DNA of 64,000 nucleotides from an uncultured Candidatus Saccharibacteria bacterium (GCA_964615415.1 CAZTNI010000001.1:176746-240745); one strand, 5' to 3'. Positions 9,765-44,104 are shown, counted from the first letter of the stretch. Notes: a model not told the origin generated them from the sequence alone. A program made the numbers and translations.

Positions 9765-9797
9765 AAAAAAGCCGCTCCAAGAGCGGCTTTTCTTTTT
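9765..9797. terminator. bidirectional intrinsic terminator
   Basis: A-run, hairpin AGCCGCTC-CAAG-AGCGGCT, T-run, between convergent genes. Confidence 0.75.
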
Positions 9798-10206
9798 ACT
9801 TATTCCAGATTCGTTTCCGGAGGAGTTTCAGAACAAAGCCTATAAGAAGGCCGGCACCAGCGGCTCCAAATAGTCCGAGATACATCTGAGGAGTTACGTT
9901 TTCTGCAGAAAAATACTCAAGTAACCCTAAAACAAAGATGGTTCCTATAAAAATGTAATCAACTTTTTTTCCAATTGCTCCATACATGATTCCGCTCCAA
10001 AATAGAATTGATAAAGTCCAAGCAAGAAATGAGTCGGTTAGAGAAAAACCAAAAAACCCCACAGGTCGCTGATAGTTGAATATTGAAAAATTAAGCTCTT
10101 GAAACACAGGAATAGTTAATATGCCAATGCAAATTGCTCCAACCAGAATGCCCGTTCTTGTTAAAACTTGCGTAAATATTCCTAAAGCTCGTGTTCTCTG
10201 AACCAT
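9796..10206 (-). CDS. integral membrane protein, unknown function
   Basis: 136 aa, mostly hydrophobic. Overlaps the start of the downstream LCAT-like gene by 25 nt. Confidence 0.55.
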   Translation of the reverse strand: MVQRTRALGIFTQVLTRTGILVGAICIGILTIPVFQELNFSIFNYQRPVGFFGFSLTDSFLAWTLSILFWSGIMYGAIGKKVDYIFIGTIFVLGLLEYFSAENVTPQMYLGLFGAAGAGLLIGFVLKLLRKRIWNK

Positions 10207-12317
10207 GTTGTGTATCTGTGGATTAATTCTACACCATCTTTTATGTTGCCTTTGTCTTTTGCTAGCACGTCCATGTGTGTCAAAAGTGCTCTAATTGCAA
10301 TATTTATAGGTAGCTGCAAGAGCTTACTTTTTACTTTTGTACGCGCTTCCAACAGGTTTCCTAGTGTTTTGCAATCGGCAACTAGGCCGGTATACACTGC
10401 CTTTTTTGTAATCCACTTATTTTCGTACGCTTTCTGGAGATCGATTAGGCATGTAGCCGGAGTGAGTTCTGTTTGCACTGGCGGAGGAACATTTTCTGTA
10501 ATAGATATTTGGGTAGAAGTTGAAGAAACGAAGAGATTGTATGAAGTGTCTTTGCCGAGTGTGGTGGTGCCAGATATTTCTGCGCTTGTGGTTGTTGCAG
10601 GGCCTGCATAATCTGCAACGATGGTGTATGTGCCGCTGCCAGTACCTACAGTCTCCACTTTGTATGTTCCAGGTAACGGGTTAAGGATTATCGCGTATTC
10701 GTCTTCTGTATTGAAGCCTGTGTAAAATGCGTCAGGGATTTCATCCAGCTCTGCTCCGGTGGTAAAGTCTTTCCCTAAACGTTTACCGTCGGGAGCGACA
10801 ATTTGCATATCAATAGGAGAGAAAAGATTTAGAAGTAAAAAACGAATGTCAGTCCCATATACTTTGCCAACCACAGTTCCTGCTTCCTTATTGTTTAGTT
10901 TCTTGAATAAGTAGGGTGCGCTAGTTGAAGCAATACCGTTGTGATTCGTTTCGTAATATGTAACCTCTGGTTCTGTAACAAGAGAGATGCTTGATGCTGG
11001 TACGGTACCATCCCCACCATCTAAATATGTTTCTATAGGTTTTCCATGTTCCCACTTTTGCGTACTGTCCCAAAGTGGTGGCGTGTACGTTTCCACCAAA
11101 AAACCACTTACAGTCATGTTGGGATAATTGTCAGCAGCTAACATTTCCGTTCTGGTGTCTCGGAATACTTTGGCGCTCTTGGAAATTAAAGTTTCGAGAA
11201 AATTGTTTACCGGATAGCCGGAAGGATATTCGAGCGTAGTTGTAGCTGTAGAGAGATAGTCATGGAACACGGGCAATAATTCCTGGATAGAAGATACTGG
11301 ACGACCGTGAATGTAGTTGTAGATGCTGCTAAAACCCACGCCGTAGCCGTTTTTACGAGCTTCATTTTTAAACATTGTGGTCAAAAATAGATTTTGAAAA
11401 GTGTCGCCAAACTCAAACTCTCCACCCTCCCAAGCTTTGTATGCCAAGGGCGCGCCTGAAAGCGGAGAGGCTACTAGAAAAAGTTGATCAACATCATTCG
11501 CGTAGTCGCTGCGCTCTATGTATTGCATCGCGACGAGGCCGCCCATCGAGTGACCAATCAGGTCGACTTGTTTGCAGTCGCAAATTTCTTTTACGTCTTC
11601 AATTTTCTGCTTTAGTTGATACGCAGTGTCGATGTTGGAGTTGCGCCACTCGTAGGGGAAGGTAAACAAAGTTTCATTTCGGATGTACCCATTTGCAAGA
11701 AAGGTGTCTATCAAGTTGTCGTAGGTGTGCAAAATAGGATCGATAACCCACTCTCCGTTTTTTTGCCACGATCCAAGAATGCCGGGGATGATAATAACAG
11801 GGTCAAATTCTTCTGCCGGCTTCGGACCCCACTTCCATGGAAGGATGTAAAAATTTTGATTTTGTATTGCCTCTGCGGGTAATGTGCCACCACTCGATAA
11901 GTAATCAGTAAATTCGCTTCCTAAACTACTGCCGTAGACGACTGCAAAAAAGTTCTCGTCATTCGCTGCATTTGTAGGAATATTATTCGGTGTTTGAGAA
12001 ATGAATGTTGCTGATGCAGCAAACCCACTTACTGAGTCTATTGCTATAGGAGTTGCATTGCCTACCGTGCCGCGATACAGAGCTACTGATTTTTGGCCTG
12101 AGATGGTTGCTGGAAGGGAATAAAAGCAGCGGTCTCCTGCTATGCCCATACGCGGCATGTAGTGTTTGCTGGCCTCGAACGGGTGCTTATAGAGGTCGCA
12201 GTAAAAGATAAAGGAGTCTGCGTAGGAAGGGCTACTGGAAACGCTAGTTACATTTGCTGAAGCAATAAAAGGAGTGGCAAGGAATAGAGGGAGCAGTAAA
12301 GCAAGTAAGTACCGCAT
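10182..12317 (-). CDS. large secreted alpha/beta-hydrolase, LCAT/PGAP1-like lipase-acyltransferase family (paralog A)
   Basis: Signal peptide MRYLLALLLPLFLATPFIASA. LCAT-like N-terminus PVIIIPGILGSW. Nucleophile elbow VDLIGHSMGG. Paralogous to 14942..17761. Confidence 0.75.
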   Translation of the reverse strand: MRYLLALLLPLFLATPFIASANVTSVSSSPSYADSFIFYCDLYKHPFEASKHYMPRMGIAGDRCFYSLPATISGQKSVALYRGTVGNATPIAIDSVSGFAASATFISQTPNNIPTNAANDENFFAVVYGSSLGSEFTDYLSSGGTLPAEAIQNQNFYILPWKWGPKPAEEFDPVIIIPGILGSWQKNGEWVIDPILHTYDNLIDTFLANGYIRNETLFTFPYEWRNSNIDTAYQLKQKIEDVKEICDCKQVDLIGHSMGGLVAMQYIERSDYANDVDQLFLVASPLSGAPLAYKAWEGGEFEFGDTFQNLFLTTMFKNEARKNGYGVGFSSIYNYIHGRPVSSIQELLPVFHDYLSTATTTLEYPSGYPVNNFLETLISKSAKVFRDTRTEMLAADNYPNMTVSGFLVETYTPPLWDSTQKWEHGKPIETYLDGGDGTVPASSISLVTEPEVTYYETNHNGIASTSAPYLFKKLNNKEAGTVVGKVYGTDIRFLLLNLFSPIDMQIVAPDGKRLGKDFTTGAELDEIPDAFYTGFNTEDEYAIILNPLPGTYKVETVGTGSGTYTIVADYAGPATTTSAEISGTTTLGKDTSYNLFVSSTSTQISITENVPPPVQTELTPATCLIDLQKAYENKWITKKAVYTGLVADCKTLGNLLEARTKVKSKLLQLPINIAIRALLTHMDVLAKDKGNIKDGVELIHRYTTWFREHEL

Positions 12318-12391
12318 ATGTAGTTGTGCCGGCACAATACCACAACCAATTTTTGATGCAAAAAGAGGACCCTTTTAGGGTCCTCTTGGTT

Positions 12392-12862
12392 TTAACGTGG
12401 CCAGGAGACTTTGCCATCATTTATGTTCACCGATGCTCCGGCGGCGAATAGGTTCATCAGGTTGTCGCTCGTAAACCACTCTTCAAACACTCTTCGTTTG
12501 CCTTGGCTGTTAAGTACGAGGCGAGTTTTGCTGGTGTAGCCCCAGCCTCGAACGCCTTCAAGTAAGTGTTCTGTTATAAGTGTTTGGACAACCTCTGGGG
12601 TAACAAAAATTCGCGCATAACTTCCGTCGCCAAAATCCTGGCGCCACTCAATTTCAATATGGGGCCATTCTCTGCCAGGCGACACATGCAATGTGCGACT
12701 GGTATTATCGTTCCACTGACAAAACAGCAGTCCGGCAGCAATACGATAGTCTGCGACTGGCAGTTGGGGGCCGATAGATGTTGGGGCCGGATGCGTGTAC
12801 ACCCAGAGCATGTTGAAAGTAAGGCGAGTATCGGCAGGAAGTGTTTCTACCGCGTCTTCCAT
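12392..12862 (-). CDS. hypothetical protein
   Basis: ORF 156 aa, no recognisable motif. Confidence 0.45.
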   Translation of the reverse strand: MEDAVETLPADTRLTFNMLWVYTHPAPTSIGPQLPVADYRIAAGLLFCQWNDNTSRTLHVSPGREWPHIEIEWRQDFGDGSYARIFVTPEVVQTLITEHLLEGVRGWGYTSKTRLVLNSQGKRRVFEEWFTSDNLMNLFAAGASVNINDGKVSWPR

Positions 12863-12929
12863 CTGTGTTCTCCGTGATTTTGTGCAACTAATTAGTAAGT
12901 TACCACAGCAAAATTTTGATGCAAAAGTT

Positions 12930-12938
12930 TGCTACACT
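12930..12938 (+). promoter_or_regulatory. extended -10 box TGCTACACT, 8 nt upstream of the ATG (leaderless)
   Basis: TGCTACACT-cagggcgt-ATG. Confidence 0.5.
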
Positions 12939-12946
12939 CAGGGCGT

Positions 12947-13249
12947 ATGGCAACTGCCTTCAAAGTAAAAGGGAAGATATGGCTCTGGCCGGGAGAGGCG
13001 GCTTGGCATTTTGTAAATGTAGACGAACAGACTTCTCTCAAAATAAAAGAGCTGGCGAGCAAGAAAAAACGAAAAGGCTTTGGGTCGGTGCCTGTTGAAG
13101 TAACGCTCGGCAAGACAAAATGGAAGACATCCATTTTCCCCGACAGCCGCTCGGGTACGTATCTTTTGCCACTCAAATTAAAAGTCCGCATGACTGAAGG
13201 TGTTGCGCATGGTGATGTTATTGTCTATACGTTGCGTGCGTTTGTGTAA
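12947..13249 (+). CDS. DUF1905-like small protein
   Basis: MATAFKVKGKIWLWPGEAAWHFVNV ... resembles the DUF1905 beta-barrel family. Start moved to 12947 because ATG 12929 overlaps the -10 box. Confidence 0.5.
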   Translation: MATAFKVKGKIWLWPGEAAWHFVNVDEQTSLKIKELASKKKRKGFGSVPVEVTLGKTKWKTSIFPDSRSGTYLLPLKLKVRMTEGVAHGDVIVYTLRAFV

Positions 13250-13278
13250 TGAGGCTATCCCTCAGTCGTCTTCATGTT

Positions 13279-13287
13279 TGCTACACT
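13279..13287 (+). promoter_or_regulatory. extended -10 box TGCTACACT upstream of the cytochrome b5-like gene
   Basis: 23 nt upstream of ATG 13311. Confidence 0.45.
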
Positions 13288-13310
13288 ATGTAGGCCTTGT
13301 TAACCCCCCC

Positions 13311-13904
13311 ATGATCAATCTTTTTCTCTACATAGTTATAGGTATTAGTATGCTCGTTGGTACAAGCTTTGCTGCTATTGGTGTGGATCGTGCGTTTTTT
13401 GCACCAGCGGCGCCGATTGCGGATGAAACAGGAGCGTTGGCGACCGGAGAAACTTCGCAGCCACAAAACGCCGCCACAACGCAAACAGGCACCTCTGTGG
13501 CGACAAATTCTACCAACTGTGTCACCACAACCCGCGGAGATGACGATGACGAAGACGACGATGATGACAAAGTGGTACAAGATTGCACGACAACCACTGC
13601 GCAGGCTACTCCTACTGTCTCTACTGCCGCGCCAAAACCAGCGACGCAACCGACGACTCAAGCTTCGGGTACCTACACCATGGCGCAAGTTGCTACGCAT
13701 AACTCTGCGACAAGCTGCTACACCGTCATTGGTGGTTCGGTCTACAACTTAACCTCGTTCGTGTCACAGCATCCGGGAGGTTCCGTGGCAATTAAGTCGC
13801 TCTGCGGTGTGGACGGAACTGCTGCGTACACTGCACAACACAGTGGTGCGCGTCGTCCGGCAAACGAACTCGCAGGACTAAAGATAGGTACACTCGCACA
13901 ATAA
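13311..13904 (+). CDS. membrane-anchored or secreted protein with a C-terminal cytochrome b5-like heme-binding domain
   Basis: N-terminal hydrophobic segment. Thr/Ala-rich, poly-acidic linker DDDDEDDDDDK. C-terminal YTMAQVATHNSATSCYTVIGGSVYNLTSFVSQHPGG (cytochrome b5 HPGG motif). Confidence 0.65.
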   Translation: MINLFLYIVIGISMLVGTSFAAIGVDRAFFAPAAPIADETGALATGETSQPQNAATTQTGTSVATNSTNCVTTTRGDDDDEDDDDDKVVQDCTTTTAQATPTVSTAAPKPATQPTTQASGTYTMAQVATHNSATSCYTVIGGSVYNLTSFVSQHPGGSVAIKSLCGVDGTAAYTAQHSGARRPANELAGLKIGTLAQ

Positions 13905-13905
13905 T

Positions 13906-14331
13906 ATGAGCTTACTCCCTTTTTTACATGTTTTTGCAGTAGGTTTTGCGGCTGCCCTCATACTCCTTGCAGACAAGGAAGCGGTTGCATGGTTCCGCGG
14001 CAAAAAGGAGGTGCTCGATAAAGACCATGTGCGGCAGTATCACGTCTTTACGTGGATTGCGCTCGGCGCGCTTGCGGCAACGGGCACGCTCTTGTTGTAT
14101 CCGACGCGTCTCTTTTTATTCTCCGAGCCGCTTTTTATTGCGAAGCTATGTTTCATTGCGGTTCTTTTTGTAAATGCAATTTTGATTGGTCGGATACAGT
14201 ATGTTGCGCTGACACGTCCATTTGCCTCGCTTTCGTCTAAAGAAAAATTACCACTATTTTTAAGTGGTATAGCGTCAACCTACTGTTGGATCATGGCGGG
14301 CGTCCTGGGGTACATTATTGCTAATTGGTAA
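13906..14331 (+). CDS. integral membrane protein, translationally coupled to the cytochrome b5-like gene
   Basis: ATG lies 1 nt after the upstream stop. 4 TM. Conserved His residues in the first segments. Confidence 0.55.
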   Translation: MSLLPFLHVFAVGFAAALILLADKEAVAWFRGKKEVLDKDHVRQYHVFTWIALGALAATGTLLLYPTRLFLFSEPLFIAKLCFIAVLFVNAILIGRIQYVALTRPFASLSSKEKLPLFLSGIASTYCWIMAGVLGYIIANW

Positions 14332-14344
14332 AAGGAGAAGTAAT

Positions 14345-14375
14345 AAAAAACGGCACGCTCTGCGTGCCGTTTTTA
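14345..14375. terminator. bidirectional intrinsic terminator
   Basis: A-run, hairpin CGGCACGC-TCT-GCGTGCCG, T-run. Confidence 0.75.
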
Positions 14376-14377
14376 GT

Positions 14378-14869
14378 TTACAGAAGGAGCGAGATGTGAT
14401 CCTCGGGCTCGATAATTTTTTGGAACCCACGCTCGATAGAGCAGAGGAGGCCGCGCCTACCTTCCACGAACTGGTATCCCTCAAGTCCGTAGGCGGCGCG
14501 CACATTTTTGCACGGCGCGTTTTGCTGGCTCACACGGAGTACGACTCCGTTGCCGACCATAATCCGCGTGCCGTCCGCAATCTGGGAGAGGTCGCCCATG
14601 CCGCGCGTCGTAATATTTTCTCCCAGTGCTCCCGGACCGAGTGTCTTGCCGAGAAGCTTTGCCATCTCCTCGATCACCTCGATCGCAACAAGTGAAATGT
14701 GGCGGTCGATATTCGGCTTAAAGGTGCCGCGGTTGCTGAAGCTCGGTCGCAGCTCGCGATTGTGATAGTCGTCCTCAAGTCCGTGGGTGCCGACCGTTAC
14801 ACGCGGTTGCGCATGTTTCGGCAGGTTTCCTACGTGACTAATACAGACTGCAACAACAGTGCCGTTCAT
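14378..14869 (-). CDS. MOSC domain protein (YiiM-like)
   Basis: GENITTRGMGDLS ... NAPCKNV pattern of the molybdenum cofactor sulfurase C-terminal domain. 163 aa. Confidence 0.65.
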   Translation of the reverse strand: MNGTVVAVCISHVGNLPKHAQPRVTVGTHGLEDDYHNRELRPSFSNRGTFKPNIDRHISLVAIEVIEEMAKLLGKTLGPGALGENITTRGMGDLSQIADGTRIMVGNGVVLRVSQQNAPCKNVRAAYGLEGYQFVEGRRGLLCSIERGFQKIIEPEDHISLLL

Positions 14870-14941
14870 TGCGTGCTCCTTGTGGCAAGATGTACAACCG
14901 ATCCTATCTTTCTCTTTTTTGCGAAGCTTGTAAAGCCGCGA

Positions 14942-17761
14942 CTATTTTTTGAGGTTGAGGGTTGCAGAACCTGCGAGGTCTATAGTGCTTGCAACAACAG
15001 TTGTGCTGGTAGTTGGTGCAACTTTTGCACTACCTACAAGACTGAGTTCTTGGCCTGGTGTGTAGACAATACCTGTCGCAGCGAGTGACGCAGAGCCAGC
15101 AAGCTTACTAGTTTCAAGCGGGAGGCCGCCCACTAAACTCGGGTCGACATACAGGGTGAAGCCTGCAAGCACTCCAGCGCTTGGCGCAACAAGTGTTACT
15201 TGTGCCGAGCCTGCGAAGTCAAACCCTGCATCTTTGCCGGTCATGAACATGGCAACGCCGCCGGTGCCGGTTACTTTGCCGCTTCCTTTTACTTCAAACG
15301 GACCGTCTTTAAGGATGTAGACACCGGGTGTAAGCGTAACTTTTGCAGATCCTGCAACGGTTATGCCGCCGCAGTACACGCCAGGGTTTAAGGTGACTGT
15401 CTGTGACTGTGCGATGTTGAGGTTGGTGTGCGTACAAGTGCCAACAGTTGGTTTCGGTTTTGTAGCGAAGGGATCGTTTTCAGGCGTGCAGGGTGTCGGG
15501 TCGGGAGTAATTTTCGGATTACCAGACTCTTTTACACCGCCGACAAAACAATTTTTAACTGTCTTGATAGTAGCTGACCCCGAGAGGGCGACTGCTTGTG
15601 CGCTGTTTGAGTTAACTTGCAGGTCGCAATTAGTGCCGAGCAGTTTAGAGCTGCCGACTAGTTTCAGTGCAGATGGAGCACTTGTGTTGAGTATTACGCC
15701 GCACGTGTCTGAGAGCGGTGGGCGCACGACAGTGAATTTACTTGTTGCAGACCCGGTGTGCCCGAAAGAGTCTGTTGCGGTTACTACCAAGGTCGACAGG
15801 CCGAGCGGCAAGGTTGCAAGGTTGAGCGGAGTTGCAGGGTTTATTGTATTGCCGTTAAGGAAGTACGACGTAGAGATAATCGGAGACTGCTCCGGGTCGG
15901 TGATGGTTGCGGTGACGGGGATAGTGTCGGTAGAAAGGTACGTGGTGCCGTCGAGCGGAGACTCGATACTAACCACAGGCGCTTCGGTGTCGAGCGGGTT
16001 AAGCGTCAGCGTTAGTTCATCGCCAGATGGGGTGAGGGTTAGTGTGTAGCCGACGACCTGTCCTCCTGCGGTAGCGTGGCTTGTGCTTGTTGCAACGACG
16101 CTCGAGCCGCACACCTCGGTTGCACTGATCGTAAAGGTGCCGCTACTTGCGCCTTGTGTCGAGACTTGATAGTCGCCCGCGATAGGATTTACTACTACGC
16201 CGTACTCGGTTGTTGTGGTGGCGCCTGAGTAGAATGCATTTGGAATTTCTTCAAACGTGCCAGGAGCAGTAAAGTTTTTTCCGAGACGGTCACCGTTCGG
16301 GTCGGTAATTTGAATATCGACAGGCTGCGTTGCGGAAAGGAAGAGTACACAGCTAACAGGGTAGGCAGTGTTTGTAGTGGCACTTGGTGCGCGGCCCGCA
16401 AGTGCTGTAAAGATGGTGCTGCGTGCGGCGGTAGGGAGGCCGCGATGCGTGGTGAGAAATTCCTGGTCGATACCGAACATGATGTCGATACTTGAGCGCG
16501 GGACCATGCCGTCGCCTAAGTCGGTATAGGTGTCGGTTGGTTCGCCGTCTGGCCACAGTGGCGGGTTAGTTGATGCGGTAGTCGAGAAGTAAATAGGAGT
16601 CGTAGCTAAACCGTCCTCCGCAGAGTAGACCTTCATCTGTATTTGCTGCAGTGCGGTCGCGCTTGCGACGAGTGCGTTCATGAATGGGTTTGCTGGTGGC
16701 GTGTCAGTGTAGTCCTGAGGAGGGAGAAGTTCTTTAAATGAGGCTACTGGTTTTGCCTGAATGTAGGCGTAGGCAGATGTGTGACCGGCATCTTTCGCTT
16801 GCTGCAAGAGTAGTGCTTGGATCAGCGAGTCGTTGATGCCATTGCCAGTGCGGATTTGCGCCCCTTCCCATGCAAGGTATGCGCTTGGGACGCCGTAAAA
16901 CGGTGTTGCAAGAAAGAGTGTCTGGTCCACATCTTTTGCGTACGTACCTCCTTGTATGTACTGCTGCGCGATAGTGCCGCCCATGCCGTGGCCGATCAAG
17001 TCAACGTAGCCGCAAGCACACTCTGTTTTTTTGTCAGCGATAAACTGTTTCAATTCGGCGGCAGATGTGACGTTTGACTGTTGCCAGTTGTACGGGAAGA
17101 CGAAGAGGTTTGCATTAAGTACGTACCCATTTTGTACCAATGTGTCGATAAGGTTTTGATACTGATGGAACACTGGGTCAACTTGCTTACCAGTCGAAGT
17201 CTCCCAGGTGGTGTAGATGTCGGGAACGATAATCACTGGTTCAAACTCTGCAGCAGGCTTCGGCCCCCACTTCCACGGCAAGATGTAATAGTTTTGATTC
17301 TCTACAGCTTCAGGTGGAATGGGGCTACCGTTTGTAAGGTGGTCGGTAAACGCACTGCCAAGGCTGCTGTCGTACACTACTGCAAAAAAGTATTCGTCGT
17401 TTACTGCGTTGGTGGGAATGTTGCTTGGTGTTTGACGTACTAACGTAGCGGCTGCTGCGGGGCCGGTAACAGTGTCTGCAGCTAAGACGGTCGAATTGGT
17501 TGGTGTGCCGCGACGCAGCTCTATGACTGGATTAGTGAGGGGAGCGGGGAGCGAGTAGTAACAGCCGTCGCCCGGTACTCCTGCGCGTGGCAGATAGTGG
17601 TAGTTAGAGGTGAATGGAAATTTATAGAGGTCGCAATAAAAAGAAAACCCCTGCTCATAGGTGGGGTCACTTGAAACGGCACTCACATTTGCGAACGCAG
17701 TCGGAACTGAAATGCTAAAGAAGCACAGCAATGCAGCTACCCAATAATGTATGTATTTCAT
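14942..17761 (-). CDS. very large secreted alpha/beta-hydrolase, LCAT/PGAP1-like family (paralog B) with a C-terminal beta-rich repeat region
   Basis: Signal peptide MKYIHYWVAALLCFFSISVPTAFA. N-terminus PVIIVPDIYTTW. Nucleophile elbow VDLIGHGMGG. About 55-60% identity to paralog A over the first 300 aa. C-terminal repeats containing GSAKVT, GSAQVT and GSATLN. Confidence 0.75.
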   Translation of the reverse strand: MKYIHYWVAALLCFFSISVPTAFANVSAVSSDPTYEQGFSFYCDLYKFPFTSNYHYLPRAGVPGDGCYYSLPAPLTNPVIELRRGTPTNSTVLAADTVTGPAAAATLVRQTPSNIPTNAVNDEYFFAVVYDSSLGSAFTDHLTNGSPIPPEAVENQNYYILPWKWGPKPAAEFEPVIIVPDIYTTWETSTGKQVDPVFHQYQNLIDTLVQNGYVLNANLFVFPYNWQQSNVTSAAELKQFIADKKTECACGYVDLIGHGMGGTIAQQYIQGGTYAKDVDQTLFLATPFYGVPSAYLAWEGAQIRTGNGINDSLIQALLLQQAKDAGHTSAYAYIQAKPVASFKELLPPQDYTDTPPANPFMNALVASATALQQIQMKVYSAEDGLATTPIYFSTTASTNPPLWPDGEPTDTYTDLGDGMVPRSSIDIMFGIDQEFLTTHRGLPTAARSTIFTALAGRAPSATTNTAYPVSCVLFLSATQPVDIQITDPNGDRLGKNFTAPGTFEEIPNAFYSGATTTTEYGVVVNPIAGDYQVSTQGASSGTFTISATEVCGSSVVATSTSHATAGGQVVGYTLTLTPSGDELTLTLNPLDTEAPVVSIESPLDGTTYLSTDTIPVTATITDPEQSPIISTSYFLNGNTINPATPLNLATLPLGLSTLVVTATDSFGHTGSATSKFTVVRPPLSDTCGVILNTSAPSALKLVGSSKLLGTNCDLQVNSNSAQAVALSGSATIKTVKNCFVGGVKESGNPKITPDPTPCTPENDPFATKPKPTVGTCTHTNLNIAQSQTVTLNPGVYCGGITVAGSAKVTLTPGVYILKDGPFEVKGSGKVTGTGGVAMFMTGKDAGFDFAGSAQVTLVAPSAGVLAGFTLYVDPSLVGGLPLETSKLAGSASLAATGIVYTPGQELSLVGSAKVAPTTSTTVVASTIDLAGSATLNLKK

Positions 17762-17834
17762 ATATATAAGAGTAGCATAGTGGGATAAAAAGAAATCCCC
17801 GCGGCGCACCTGGTGCGCTGCGGGGATGAATTGT

Positions 17835-23968: not shown

Positions 23969-24006
23969 AAAGAAAAAACCGCCAAATGGCGGCTTTTCTT
24001 TTTATG
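23969..24006 (-). terminator. intrinsic terminator of ssrA
   Basis: Hairpin CCGCCAAATGGCGG followed by a T-run on the minus strand, directly after the tmRNA 3' end. Confidence 0.75.
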
Positions 24007-24380
24007 TGGAAGTGGGCGGAGTTGAACCGCCGTGCAACACAAGTCCTCGTACACATCTACAGAAGATAGACTATCTTATTTTCTTGGACTCAATCGTAAG
24101 AGATAGACAGAATAAAATTGAGCTGCAGCTTCATAGTTTCAATTACTGAGCGAAGCGGTTCTCAGTAACTAGAGCCTGAAATATAACACTCGGTCTCCAT
24201 ACTCAGACACTCTGGAGCGAATGTGATTATGCGCGCGCTGTTGCGAACGATAGATCATTCACCGAGAAATACGGTGATTTAACTGATTTTGCAGTTATGG
24301 TTTGGCACATTTTTAAGAAGGTATGCCACTTCTCTCCTGCATGTAGGAAGATAATTGTATTGTCTAAGCCTGTCACTCCC
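24007..24380 (-). ncRNA. ssrA: transfer-messenger RNA (tmRNA, SsrA)
   Basis: Minus strand 5' GGGAGUG ... GUGUACGAGGACUUGUGUUGCACGGCGGUUCAACUCCGCCCACUUCCA 3'. T-arm GGCGG-UUCAACU-CCGCC identical to the E. coli tmRNA T-loop. Acceptor pairing GGGAGUG/CACUUCC with a G3:U70 wobble (Ala identity). CCA not encoded. Lies downstream of smpB on the same strand. Candidate tag ORF GCA (nt 89) ... ends FATARA-TAA at 24227-24229. Confidence 0.8.
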
Positions 24381-24992: not shown

Positions 24993-25436
24993 TTATTCGT
25001 TTTTCAATGTCCTGCGCATTTCGCGCTCCGTGTCCCGCTTCTTTAAGACGGCACGTTTGTCGAATGCTTTCCGACCGCGCGCGGCTGCCACGCGCAGCTT
25101 TAATACATCTCCTTTATTATACACCGAAAGTGGCACTACTGTCAAGCCTTTTTGACCCTCATATTCGGCCAGTTTTTCTATCTCCTCCTTGGTGAGGAGT
25201 AGTTTGCGGCTGCGCTCTGGGTCGTAGTCGGTTGGCGTGTTTGCTGCCTGGTAGGGTGGCACCGACATGCCTACTATATATGCTTCGCCGCCGCGTACTA
25301 TTATATGCGCGCCGTCTAATTTTCCGTTCCCTCCACGCAGCGACTTTACTTCGAAGCCAAGGAGCTCTAAGCCCGCCTCGAATTCCTCGAGGACCTCGTA
25401 GTTAAGTCGCGCTTTTTTGTTCTCTATAAGAGACAT
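24993..25436 (-). CDS. smpB: SsrA-binding protein SmpB
   Basis: MSLIENKKARLNYEVLEEFEAGLELLGFEVKSLR ... typical SmpB N-terminus. Confidence 0.95.
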   Translation of the reverse strand: MSLIENKKARLNYEVLEEFEAGLELLGFEVKSLRGGNGKLDGAHIIVRGGEAYIVGMSVPPYQAANTPTDYDPERSRKLLLTKEEIEKLAEYEGQKGLTVVPLSVYNKGDVLKLRVAAARGRKAFDKRAVLKKRDTEREMRRTLKNE

Positions 25437-25464
25437 GCGCTCAGTATACCGCTATAGCACAAAA

Positions 25465-30602: not shown

Positions 30603-30630
30603 CCGGCCAGAAATGGCCGGAATTTTTTTG
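30603..30630 (+). terminator. intrinsic terminator
   Basis: Hairpin CCGGCC-AGAAAT-GGCCGG followed by AATTTTTTT. Confidence 0.7.
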
Positions 30631-30702
30631 TGGGCGCGGCAGGGATCGAACCTGCGACCAGTCGTGTATAAGACGACGGCTCTACCACTGAGCTACGCGC
30701 CC
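30631..30702 (-). tRNA. tRNA-Ile with anticodon UAU (reads AUA)
   Basis: Minus strand GGGCGCG-UA-GCUC-AGUGGUA-GAGC-C-GUCGU-CUUAUAC-ACGAC-UGGUC-GCAGG-UUCGAUC-CCUGC-CGCGCCC-A. All four stems are perfect. CCA not encoded. Confidence 0.85.
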
Positions 30703-41336: not shown

Positions 41337-41426
41337 TGGCGGAGAGGGAGGGATTCGAACCCTCGGAACCCTTTCGGGCTCAACAACTTAGCAGGTTGCT
41401 CCATTCGGCCGCTCTGGCACCTCTCC
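41337..41426 (-). tRNA. tRNA-Ser(GCU), type II
   Basis: Minus strand GGAGAGG-UG-CCA-...-GCAAC-CUGCUAA-GUUGU-(long variable arm)-GAGGG-UUCGAAU-CCCUC-CCUCUCC-G-CCA. G73 discriminator. CCA encoded. Confidence 0.85.
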
Positions 41427-43973: not shown

Positions 43974-44058
43974 GGAGAGATGGATGAGTGGTTTAAATCA
44001 ACAGTTTACTAAACTGTCGATCCGCAAGGATCCGTGGGTTCGAATCCCACTCTCTCCG
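43974..44058 (+). tRNA. Ser-like type II tRNA with an unusual anticodon loop UUACUAA (anticodon ACU)
   Basis: GGAGAGA-UG-GAU-GAGUGGUUUAA-AUC-A-ACAGU-UUACUAA-ACUGU-(16-nt variable arm GAUCC-GCAA-GGAUC)-GUGGG-UUCGAAU-CCCAC-UCUCUCC-G. All stems pair. G73 discriminator and 3-bp D-stem as in tRNA-Ser. Confidence 0.55.
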
Positions 44059-44104
44059 CATAAAGAAAGATATACGTGCCTCATCCGTCAGGTACTATAC
44101 AAAC

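Follow-up and report, generated by a model that had tools for sequence, protein, structure and literature searches.

The closest described systems to the gene pair treated here are lipid-acting alpha/beta-hydrolases and, on the non-catalytic side, proteins of the same fold that have lost the nucleophilic serine. The latter include ABHD5/CGI-58, in which the Ser is changed to Asn and which acts as a co-activator of ATGL, and the neuroligins, adhesion proteins with an alpha/beta-hydrolase fold in which the nucleophile Ser is replaced by Gly. The former include LCAT and LPLA2 (PF02450; PDB entries 4x96 and 4x90), the Bacillus LipA lipases (PF01674; 1i6w and 6nkc), BlEst2 of B. licheniformis (6wpx) and a lipase of Archaeoglobus fulgidus (2zyh). 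A C-terminal beta-sandwich in lipases is reported either to affect the use of long-chain acyl substrates or to inhibit the enzyme (PMC10816834). Patescibacteria are without lipid synthesis, and no mechanism for lipid uptake or breakdown is known in them (PMC11665869); CPR cells (those belonging to the candidate phyla radiation) show lysolipid enrichment, possibly owing to phospholipase A action on the lipids of other cells (PMC7242380). The genes in question, called A and B, lie in a 64,000-nucleotide stretch of DNA recorded as coming from an uncultured Candidatus Saccharibacteria bacterium (GCA_964615415.1, CAZTNI010000001.1:176746-240745); this whole stretch is referred to as the window.

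Proteins are called Ser-type or Gly-type according to the residue found at the nucleophile column, as read from alignments, and the window holds one of each:

10182..12317, minus strand: gene A, Ser-type alpha/beta-hydrolase of 711 aa (Pfam, AlphaFold, Foldseek)
14942..17761, minus strand: gene B, Gly-type paralog of 939 aa, a predicted pseudoenzyme (Pfam LCAT, AlphaFold, clade membership)

That A is an enzyme accompanied by a conserved, nucleophile-less paralog in a conserved cassette can be put forward with high confidence as a description. The interpretation preferred here, with a probability of roughly 0.6, is that this is a surface or secreted lipolytic cassette composed of an enzyme and a pseudoenzyme. 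The first-pass annotation had reported two giant LCAT-like lipase/acyltransferases encoded on one strand. Both open reading frames (ORFs) are indeed there, on the minus strand, though at 711 and 939 aa the proteins are not giant. The full ORFs run from 10182 to 12335 (A) and from 14942 to 17809 (B), and with ATG starts the products are 100% matches to the public gene calls P0001 and P0056, both of which lie on a single 316,078-bp contig.

A and B are paralogs, with 42% identity over 618 aa in a BLASTP alignment (E = 7e-166). Identity is 55.2% over the first 300 residues, in keeping with the 55-60% proposed earlier for such a span, and by region it amounts to 61.6% in the N-terminal domain (N-domain), 40.5% in the hydrolase and 35% in the beta-sandwich. 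The conserved Cys-containing N-terminal motif that had been picked out by eye, FYCDLYK.PF....HY.PR.G..GD.C.YSLPA, is found in both proteins. The window is collinear over tens of kilobases with five other patescibacterial contigs, one of which is labelled 'Candidatus Paceibacterota bacterium', and the genes held in common include ndk, RNase J, rplT-rpmI-infC, smpB, ftsH and recG. By this collinearity, and by the distribution of the protein family, whose members come overwhelmingly from Patescibacteria, the source organism is patescibacterial, which agrees with the epibiotic or streamlined type of organism raised earlier as a condition, and the cassette is conserved in one lineage of Paceibacteria.

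The AlphaFold model of A has a predicted local distance difference test score (pLDDT) of 92.5 and a predicted template modelling score (pTM) of 0.83. The protein is divided as follows:

12255..12317, minus strand: residues 1-21, signal-peptide-like, with a hydrophobic segment (1-19) and an AxA site; helical, low pLDDT
11814..12254, minus strand: residues 22-168 (23-165 in the model), N-terminal Cys domain with C40 and C64, common to B
10878..11813, minus strand: residues 169-480 (170-475 in the model), alpha/beta-hydrolase core with a helical insertion
10482..10877, minus strand: residues 481-612 (493-608 in the model), beta-sandwich, from the secondary structure of the model
10185..10481, minus strand: residues 613-711, C-terminal helical bundle of four helices (620-709) with C623 and C649

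The core of A bears a PGILGS loop (with G179), a PYEWR motif, a CxC pair (C246 and C248) and the nucleophile elbow GHSMGG, written in the DNA as GGT CAC TCG ATG GGC GGC. The catalytic codons are those of S257 (11547-11549), D436 (11010-11012) and H459 (10941-10943). In comparison with PDB sequences, the position of S257 is that of the nucleophilic Ser in the LIGHSLG string of human LCAT, and D436 and H459 are invariant in all 244 aligned family members. The model places the nucleophile between a strand and a helix, with the Asp and His following strands 427-433 and 452-455, as in the canonical fold, and the helical insertion of about 100 residues is formed by helices 291-387. A carries an intact Ser257-Asp436-His459 set and is predicted, from sequence and model, to be catalytically competent. 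A hidden Markov model (HMM) of the helical bundle, built on the 98 C-terminal residues of close orthologs, matches the C-terminus of every one of the 12 N-domain-bearing Ser-type proteins in the loci retrieved; among 250 family proteins it is matched in 81, and Gly-types give partial, weak matches only. The C-x-C pair, seven to nine residues ahead of the nucleophile strand, is found in A at 11574-11582 and in B (C248/C250) at 17012-17020, and is kept in 227 of the 250 family members, Ser- and Gly-types alike.

The class of lipid on which A might act is less sharply indicated. In Pfam, A scores 66.1 bits against LCAT (cut-off 21), 35.2 against PGAP1 (cut-off 24.3) and 26.2 against Lipase_2 (cut-off 20.3), and the public annotations of some of its relatives read 'Lecithin:cholesterol acyltransferase' or 'alpha/beta hydrolase'. 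The LCAT match is confined to profile positions 68-177 of 392, the stretch from G-Y…PY(D/E)WR through the nucleophile elbow, and the PGAP1 match to about 48 residues around the nucleophile. When a family profile of 65 sequences was compared with PDB sequences, Bacillus LipA-type lipases were matched at 8.8e-9 over 57 residues, with a nearly identical box, VDlvaHSmGG, and LCAT/LPLA2 at 2.9e-5 over 92-100 residues. Foldseek comparison of A with the PDB gave BlEst2 (6wpx) at 3.5e-11, LPLA2 at 1.5e-9 and LCAT at 3.4e-9, with family I lipases and PhaZ7 ranking after them; for B, BlEst2 again came first (3.4e-9), LCAT and LPLA2 were not among the top 50 fold matches, and the A. fulgidus lipase ranked high for both proteins. 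Since the LCAT matches of the two proteins cover only positions 63-177 of the 392-position profile and LipA is matched at least as well, the term 'LCAT-like' is loosely specific, and the fitting label for A is LCAT/lipase-class-2-like alpha/beta-hydrolase.

These comparisons bear on the alternative that the substrate of A is not membrane phospholipid at all, A being instead a PhaZ7-like polyester or polyhydroxyalkanoate (PHA) depolymerase, a triacylglycerol lipase or an envelope esterase, with B binding the substrate. The A-H-S-M-G-G box held in common with LipA, which is the best PDB profile match, would suit such an enzyme, as would the presence of PhaZ7 and family I lipases among the fold matches and two weak matches to NCBIfam PHA depolymerase models (1.3e-5 and 5.7e-4). 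The latter amount to 24.5 and 19.1 bits, however, far under their cut-offs of 300 and 450, the 19.1-bit score being that of the PhaZ7 model (NF050060). Moreover, the best Pfam model for A is LCAT, by a match that takes in PY(D/E)WR, and in the fold comparison third and fourth place go to LPLA2 and LCAT. A substrate of this other kind is regarded as unlikely.

Protein B was modelled with a pLDDT of 89.0 and a pTM of 0.66, and its regions are:

17690..17761, minus strand: residues 1-24, signal-peptide-like, with a helical N-terminus in the model
17252..17689, minus strand: residues 25-170 (26-167 in the model), N-terminal Cys domain with C43 and C67, homologous to that of A
16382..17251, minus strand: residues 171-460 (172-455 in the model), hydrolase-like core without a nucleophile, from the DNA and column states
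15992..16381, minus strand: residues 461-590 (471-586 in the model), beta-sandwich, 35% identical to that of A
15707..15991, minus strand: residues 591-685, Ig-like Big_7 domain, with strands spanning 596-679
14945..15706, minus strand: residues 686-939 (688-938 in the model), beta-helix-like DUF7305, rich in Thr, Ser and Gly and containing six Cys

B also passes the Pfam thresholds for LCAT (37.2 bits, cut-off 21; profile positions 63-171 of 392) and Lipase_2 (21.5, cut-off 20.3), and its PGAP1 score of 19.9 falls under the cut-off of 24.3, so that PGAP1 is passed by A alone. Beyond the sandwich, Big_7 just passes its cut-off of 24.1, at 24.2 bits, in a scan of the C-terminus by itself, and DUF7305 scores 32.3 against 27, the model there being all-beta with short regular strands. 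The Thr/Ser-rich beta C-terminus attributed to the larger paralog is thus real in composition (T 14.3%, S 9.7%) and all-beta in the prediction; it has no PDB sequence match.

The elbow of A is altered in B. The corresponding string, GHGMGG, is encoded by GGC CAC GGC ATG GGC GGC, in which the nucleophile position is G259 (codon GGC, 16985-16987), at least two substitutions away from the TCG codon of A. D181 (17219-17221) stands in place of the oxyanion-loop Gly, changing PG to PD, and PYNWQ is found where A has PYEWR, whilst D417 (16511-16513) and H439 (16445-16447) are kept. Hence the strings GHSMGG and GHGMGG, both taken initially for nucleophile elbows, are both present, but without a serine the second is no such elbow, and of the two proteins described as LCAT/PGAP1-type lipase/acyltransferases only A has the Ser-Asp-His triad. 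A sequencing error or a recent mutation was considered as the source of the Gly and is ruled out by the two or more codon changes, by the occurrence of the same B protein in an independent Logan assembly and by the existence of a conserved clade. On these sequence features, the Gly in the nucleophile column and the PD oxyanion loop, B cannot be a hydrolase or acyltransferase of the LCAT/PGAP1 type.

B does not stand by itself. Among the best 120 homologs of A, the aligned nucleophile column holds Ser in 113 and Gly in six, and the same six carry Asp for Gly in the oxyanion-loop motif IIIPGILGSW. With a search started from B and an exhaustive profile search, 20 Gly-type and 225 Ser-type proteins were distinguished at this column among the sequences retrieved, within a family that comprises 9,467 representative clusters at E<=1e-3. 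Thirteen of the 20 Gly-types were taken into clade tests, and these form an exclusive clade in the tree of the hydrolase core and again in that of the beta-sandwich, separate from the Ser-types. Residues specific to the Gly-types are G179D, S257G, D223N (PYDW to PYNW), D200Q, K186T and F316L, among others, and all Gly-types retain the Asp, mostly in GDGMVP, and the His. By sequence criteria, B is a member of an old and maintained subfamily without a catalytic nucleophile, and as such a pseudoenzyme.

Family-bearing contigs also occur in co-assembly sets of metagenome-assembled genomes (MAGs) under the labels 'uncultured Gammaproteobacteria', 'Bdellovibrionales' and 'Candidatus Saccharibacteria' (L022, L026, L029 and L033 among them; loci are numbered in this way throughout). 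Weak family matches also lie in MAGs of Acidobacteriaceae, Nitrospirales, Syntrophales and Nitrosopumilaceae; these and the labelled contigs may represent either true occurrence outside Patescibacteria or mislabelled bins.

It might be supposed that A and B are two independent, active lipases or acyltransferases with different substrates, B working through another nucleophile or through a water activated by the Asp-His pair. Both proteins score above the Pfam LCAT threshold, B is under purifying selection, and it shares with every Gly-type the retained Asp and His. The nucleophile column is nevertheless Gly in 20 of 20 Gly-types, the residue next to it varies (M, T, A, S, L, Q or E) with no conserved Ser, Cys or Thr as a substitute, and the oxyanion-loop Gly is replaced as well. 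No esterase of the alpha/beta-hydrolase fold is known to work with Gly at the elbow, and a second active enzyme is considered very improbable.

At the other extreme, B could be a functionless relic of a tandem duplication whose link with A is historical only. Some genomes hold just one gene of the two, and the pair in the window is split by an insertion, as would be expected of a decaying arrangement. Against this, all of the Gly-type reading frames examined are intact, at 750-1150 aa, 80 columns do not vary across 13 Gly-type sequences, the C-terminal domains are elaborated and some genomes keep a Gly-type gene alone in the slot. Furthermore, conservation of the Gly-type between genomes (43-58% in the common region) equals that of the active type (46-53%), as compared by protein identity, synonymous sites being saturated. 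The idea of a relic is hardly credible in the light of this conservation.

The N-terminal Cys domain connects the two types in another way. It is about 145 residues long, with no Pfam match even at E<=10 and no meaningful match among PDB sequences. Between the Ser- and Gly-type proteins of one genome it is 58-79% identical, as against 41-54% (Ser-Ser) and 38-49% (Gly-Gly) between genomes, whereas in the hydrolase and sandwich it is the orthologs of different genomes that are closer (41-63%) than the paralogs within a genome (32-48%). In the N-domain tree the Gly-type proteins are not monophyletic. Conversion tracts are visible in L003, where codons 105-134 show 98% nucleotide identity and 93% identity at the third positions of identical codons, and in L004, where the values for codons 100-160 are 83-93% and 73-83%, the background for these comparisons being roughly 25-50%. 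The N-domain evolves in concert inside each genome by gene conversion, and the other domains do not. In the window pair, N-domain identity is at its lowest (58%) and conversion has left no more than a faint trace, which fits with reduced conversion after an insertion had separated A and B.

The two types also occur within single chains. P0006 (966 aa, modules 27-318 and 441-737) and P0026 (945 aa, modules 36-316 and 430-733) are fusions in which a Gly-type module, with HGQGG and a PT or PM loop, is followed by a Ser-type module with GHSMGG and PGILGS, an order that is the same as the gene order in adjacent pairs. In addition, the N-domain HMM has a second, partial match (model positions 22-77) in the beta-sandwich of A, at 10553-10723 (residues ~532-588), and from the sequence part of the N-domain and this sandwich may be distantly related.

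On a heuristic reading, both N-termini are Sec-like, as had been claimed at the outset. That of A is MRYLLALLLPLFLATPFIASA followed by N, where a basic residue and a hydrophobic core are found together with an AxA site (…FIASA before the N), and that of B is MKYIHYWVAALLCFFSISVPTAFA followed by N, with the same features (…PTAFA before the N). Homologs keep the '…ASAN' pattern at the end of the putative signal peptide. Export of A and B by the Sec route may be inferred on good grounds.

The genes surrounding A and B in the window are given below, starting with a gene downstream of A and continuing with those that lie between the paralogs:

9796..10206, minus strand: small membrane-protein gene, 136 aa (ORF), its start overlapping the 3' end of A by 25 nt
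12392-12862, minus strand: 156-aa protein with no Pfam match
12929-13249, plus strand: DUF1905 (Pfam)
13200-13904, plus strand: cytochrome b5 (Pfam)
13906-14331, plus strand: 141-aa membrane protein
14378-14869, minus strand: MOSC (Pfam)

In L001, L003, L004 and L005 a Gly-type gene lies directly upstream of a Ser-type gene, the two sharing a strand and standing 57-177 bp apart, and a scan of GTDB species representatives gave the same adjacency in L012 and L014. None of the five intervening window genes is found between the paralogs in these six loci; by tblastn, only MOSC recurs, in L007 (57-58% identity). As the intervening genes are absent from the other adjacent-pair loci, 12392..14869 is best taken for an insertion, specific to this lineage, into what was a tandem pair. 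An 'accessory cluster' retained between the copies had been proposed, and Pfam confirms its DUF1905, cytochrome b5 and MOSC members, but it is not a retained unit: a functional cluster of A, B and these genes is ruled out by synteny in the six other genomes.

The small protein encoded after A has two hydrophobic segments above a strict threshold, its sequence suggesting about four, and has no Pfam or NCBIfam match; a homolog search gave two unnamed proteins only. Its gene follows the Ser-type gene in nine loci, with homologs in L001, L003, L005, L010, L011, L012, L014 and L017, and the two reading frames often overlap. One further homolog is found near the Gly-type gene of L007, and the protein is absent from L004. 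As their genes overlap, A and the small membrane protein are probably co-expressed. The normal order is Gly-type pseudo-hydrolase, Ser-type hydrolase and small membrane protein, of which the window holds a disrupted copy; no other partner accompanies the Ser-type gene as constantly as the small membrane protein. The upstream partner is more variable. In L010 (6528-7946) and L042 (5661-6968), the gene upstream of the Ser-type encodes a signal peptide, an N-domain and Ig-like repeats but neither a hydrolase nor a sandwich module, which means that the N-domain can exist apart from the enzyme fold. The Ser-type gene and the small protein are the most constant core and the upstream partner is facultative and variable, yet that partner always bears an N-domain and adhesin-like modules, such that docking or targeting through the N-domain is the simplest common denominator.

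Gene A has a G+C content of 0.44 (0.43 at third codon positions, GC3) and the small membrane-protein gene one of 0.38 (GC3 0.31), compared with 0.53 for gene B and 0.50 for the window; both genes, which together span 9796-12317, also lie below the adjoining genes. Horizontal replacement of gene A and the small gene, which this low G+C content raised as a possibility, was set aside in view of the conserved syntenic slot.

The tight genetic coupling of A to the small membrane protein could also mean that A is a lipase toxin, antibacterial or host-attacking, that B is a steric chaperone or inhibitor acting until delivery and that the small membrane protein confers immunity. Fusions of Gly- and Ser-type modules exist, and there are precedents in the lipase-specific foldases and in the inhibitory C-terminal domains of BlEst2 (PMC10816834). 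B is unrelated to the Lif-type foldases, being instead a paralog of the enzyme, and has a putative signal peptide of its own along with adhesin-like domains; the small membrane protein, moreover, is absent from L004. A toxin system of this kind is quite improbable.

Two structures in the window bear on whether the paralogs are transcribed together:

12363..12387, minus strand: terminator-like hairpin with UUUUU, between the 156-aa gene and A; dG -18.3 kcal/mol, z = -4.7
17795..17827, minus strand: terminator-like hairpin with a U-tract, between the upstream SDR gene and B; dG -26.9 kcal/mol, z = -6.4

For the hairpin ahead of A, none of 200 shuffles folded equally well. No terminator-like structure is present between B and MOSC in the window.

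In the lipolytic cassette as interpreted here, B is an ancient paralog that retained the fold together with the Asp and His, lost the Ser (to Gly), exchanged the oxyanion Gly for Asp and bears an adhesin-like C-terminus. In the mechanism proposed, both A and B would be exported and displayed outside the cell, where their common N-domain may direct them to the same site. There, B would bind or target without catalysing, or would regulate, and A would cleave ester-linked acyl chains from host or debris lipids, or possibly act as an acyltransferase. The fatty acids or lysolipids so released may feed a lipid-auxotrophic cell. The small membrane protein, probably co-expressed with A, may anchor A or protect against it. 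The Ser- and Gly-types are probably linked in function in this manner. Scavenging of lipid from host membranes is a tentative suggestion, less likely than not, and is drawn from the context of absent lipid synthesis and lysolipid enrichment. A more ambitious version is doubtful enough to be called unlikely: the Ser-type, the Gly-type and the small protein would together form a surface machine taking acyl lipids from host membranes, with the dead pocket and adhesin domains of B binding the target membrane or lipid, the active paralog cleaving the lipid, and the common N-domain, fast-evolving and gene-converted, serving as a lineage-specific docking module for the same anchor or host receptor.

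Several observations weigh against the lipolytic cassette as interpreted here. The signal peptides of A and B are recognised by eye. Gene conversion of the N-domain can be a passive consequence of the tandem arrangement. No Ser-type gene is adjacent to the Gly-type gene in L007, L008, L009 and L016, and the Ser-type gene of L011 has no Gly-type neighbour; as pairing is thus not universal, an obligate heterocomplex is unlikely. In the window itself, A and B appear not to be co-transcribed, given that they are 2.6 kb apart with a terminator-like hairpin before each. The similarity of A to LCAT/LPLA2 spans about 100 residues around the nucleophile, and the related folds include triacylglycerol lipases and PhaZ7, which leaves the substrate class broad. 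Finally, a pure scaffold would not need the lasting Asp and His found in every Gly-type, and residual or different chemistry may therefore remain.

The cassette nonetheless offers a concrete and testable handle on lipid acquisition in Patescibacteria, and the family, predicted to be exported, lipase-type and very large in this group, is an obvious place to look for it. If the surface machine were real, no concrete apparatus for lipid acquisition would have been proposed for Patescibacteria before it. The A/B pair also illustrates cleanly, in a bacterium, how an enzyme and its pseudoenzyme partner can undergo domain-restricted concerted evolution. In the open-access literature, no description was found of the Gly-type clade, the gene order, the fusions, the small membrane protein or the concerted evolution of the N-domain, and nothing specific was found on lipases or LCAT-like proteins of Patescibacteria or Parcubacteria.

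Other sequence elements accompany the cassette in the window:

12338..12363, minus strand: promoter-like element upstream of A, with a -35-like TTGCAT separated by 16 nt from an extended -10 (TGGTATTGT), from a reading of the sequence
12901-12926, minus strand: second copy of a 26-nt direct repeat, with TGGTAACTT at the extended -10, upstream of the 156-aa gene, at 88% identity

The core of the repeat, TTGCATCAAAA, has exact occurrences in the window only at those two repeat sites, and the 26-nt repeat could, from its sequence, represent a putative duplicated promoter or common regulatory site. Elsewhere, a membrane protein of 140-143 aa is encoded on the minus strand, divergently and upstream of the Gly-type gene, in L001 (9444-9866), L003 (6712-7134) and L005 (9496-9927); these are 73-83% identical to one another with no Pfam match, and tblastn gives no homolog in the window. 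A gene of equal size and position is found in L008 (5508-5930, minus strand). In L007 (9834-10832), the small membrane protein homolog is followed directly by MOSC; together with the MOSC gene of the window, this places MOSC near the cassette in at least two genomes. Further along the window, ARAGORN predicts tRNA-Ile (TAT) at 30630-30702 and tRNA-Ser (ACT) at 43974-44059, and tRNA-Ser (GCT) at 41337-41426; Rfam confirms them as tRNAs, and the unusual anticodons TAT and ACT are those predicted by ARAGORN. A tmRNA gene, with the tag peptide AKSVKSPYFSVNDLSFATARA, lies near smpB with ftsH adjoining (24004-24380 and 24996-25451), an ordinary arrangement.

When set beside the known systems, A and B have LCAT/LPLA2 as their best-scoring Pfam family. 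A resembles these enzymes in the motif G-Y…PY(D/E)WR…(G/A)HSxG and in the canonical order of the Asp, which in A lies in G-D-G-T-V, and then the His; ranking third and fourth by fold for A, LPLA2 and LCAT have a template modelling score (TM-score) of about 0.5 when normalised to the target, which is too low to establish the cap and membrane-binding subdomains specific to LCAT. Unlike them, A and B possess in addition an N-terminal Cys domain, a beta-sandwich and C-terminal domains, and B is without the nucleophile. Bacillus LipA has in common with A the box VD(I/L)VAHSMGG, which B possesses without the Ser, but LipA is a minimal hydrolase of 181 aa with no lid or extra domains, in contrast to A with its helical insertion of ~100 residues and four other modules. 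In BlEst2 and the A. fulgidus lipase the hydrolase core is followed by a beta-sandwich, as in A and B. The sequence relationship to these two is distant (E = 2.2e-3, 11-13% identity), they are without the N-terminal Cys domain and no pseudoenzyme partner has been described for them. For B, the parallel is with ABHD5/CGI-58 and the neuroligins, where the fold is likewise kept under purifying selection with the nucleophile replaced, and where the roles are non-catalytic ones of binding or activation. Unlike these eukaryotic proteins, to which it is unrelated in sequence, B is bacterial, predicted to be secreted and the tandem paralog of its presumed partner, and proteins of its Gly-type are sometimes fused to that partner and have in common with it a gene-converted N-domain.

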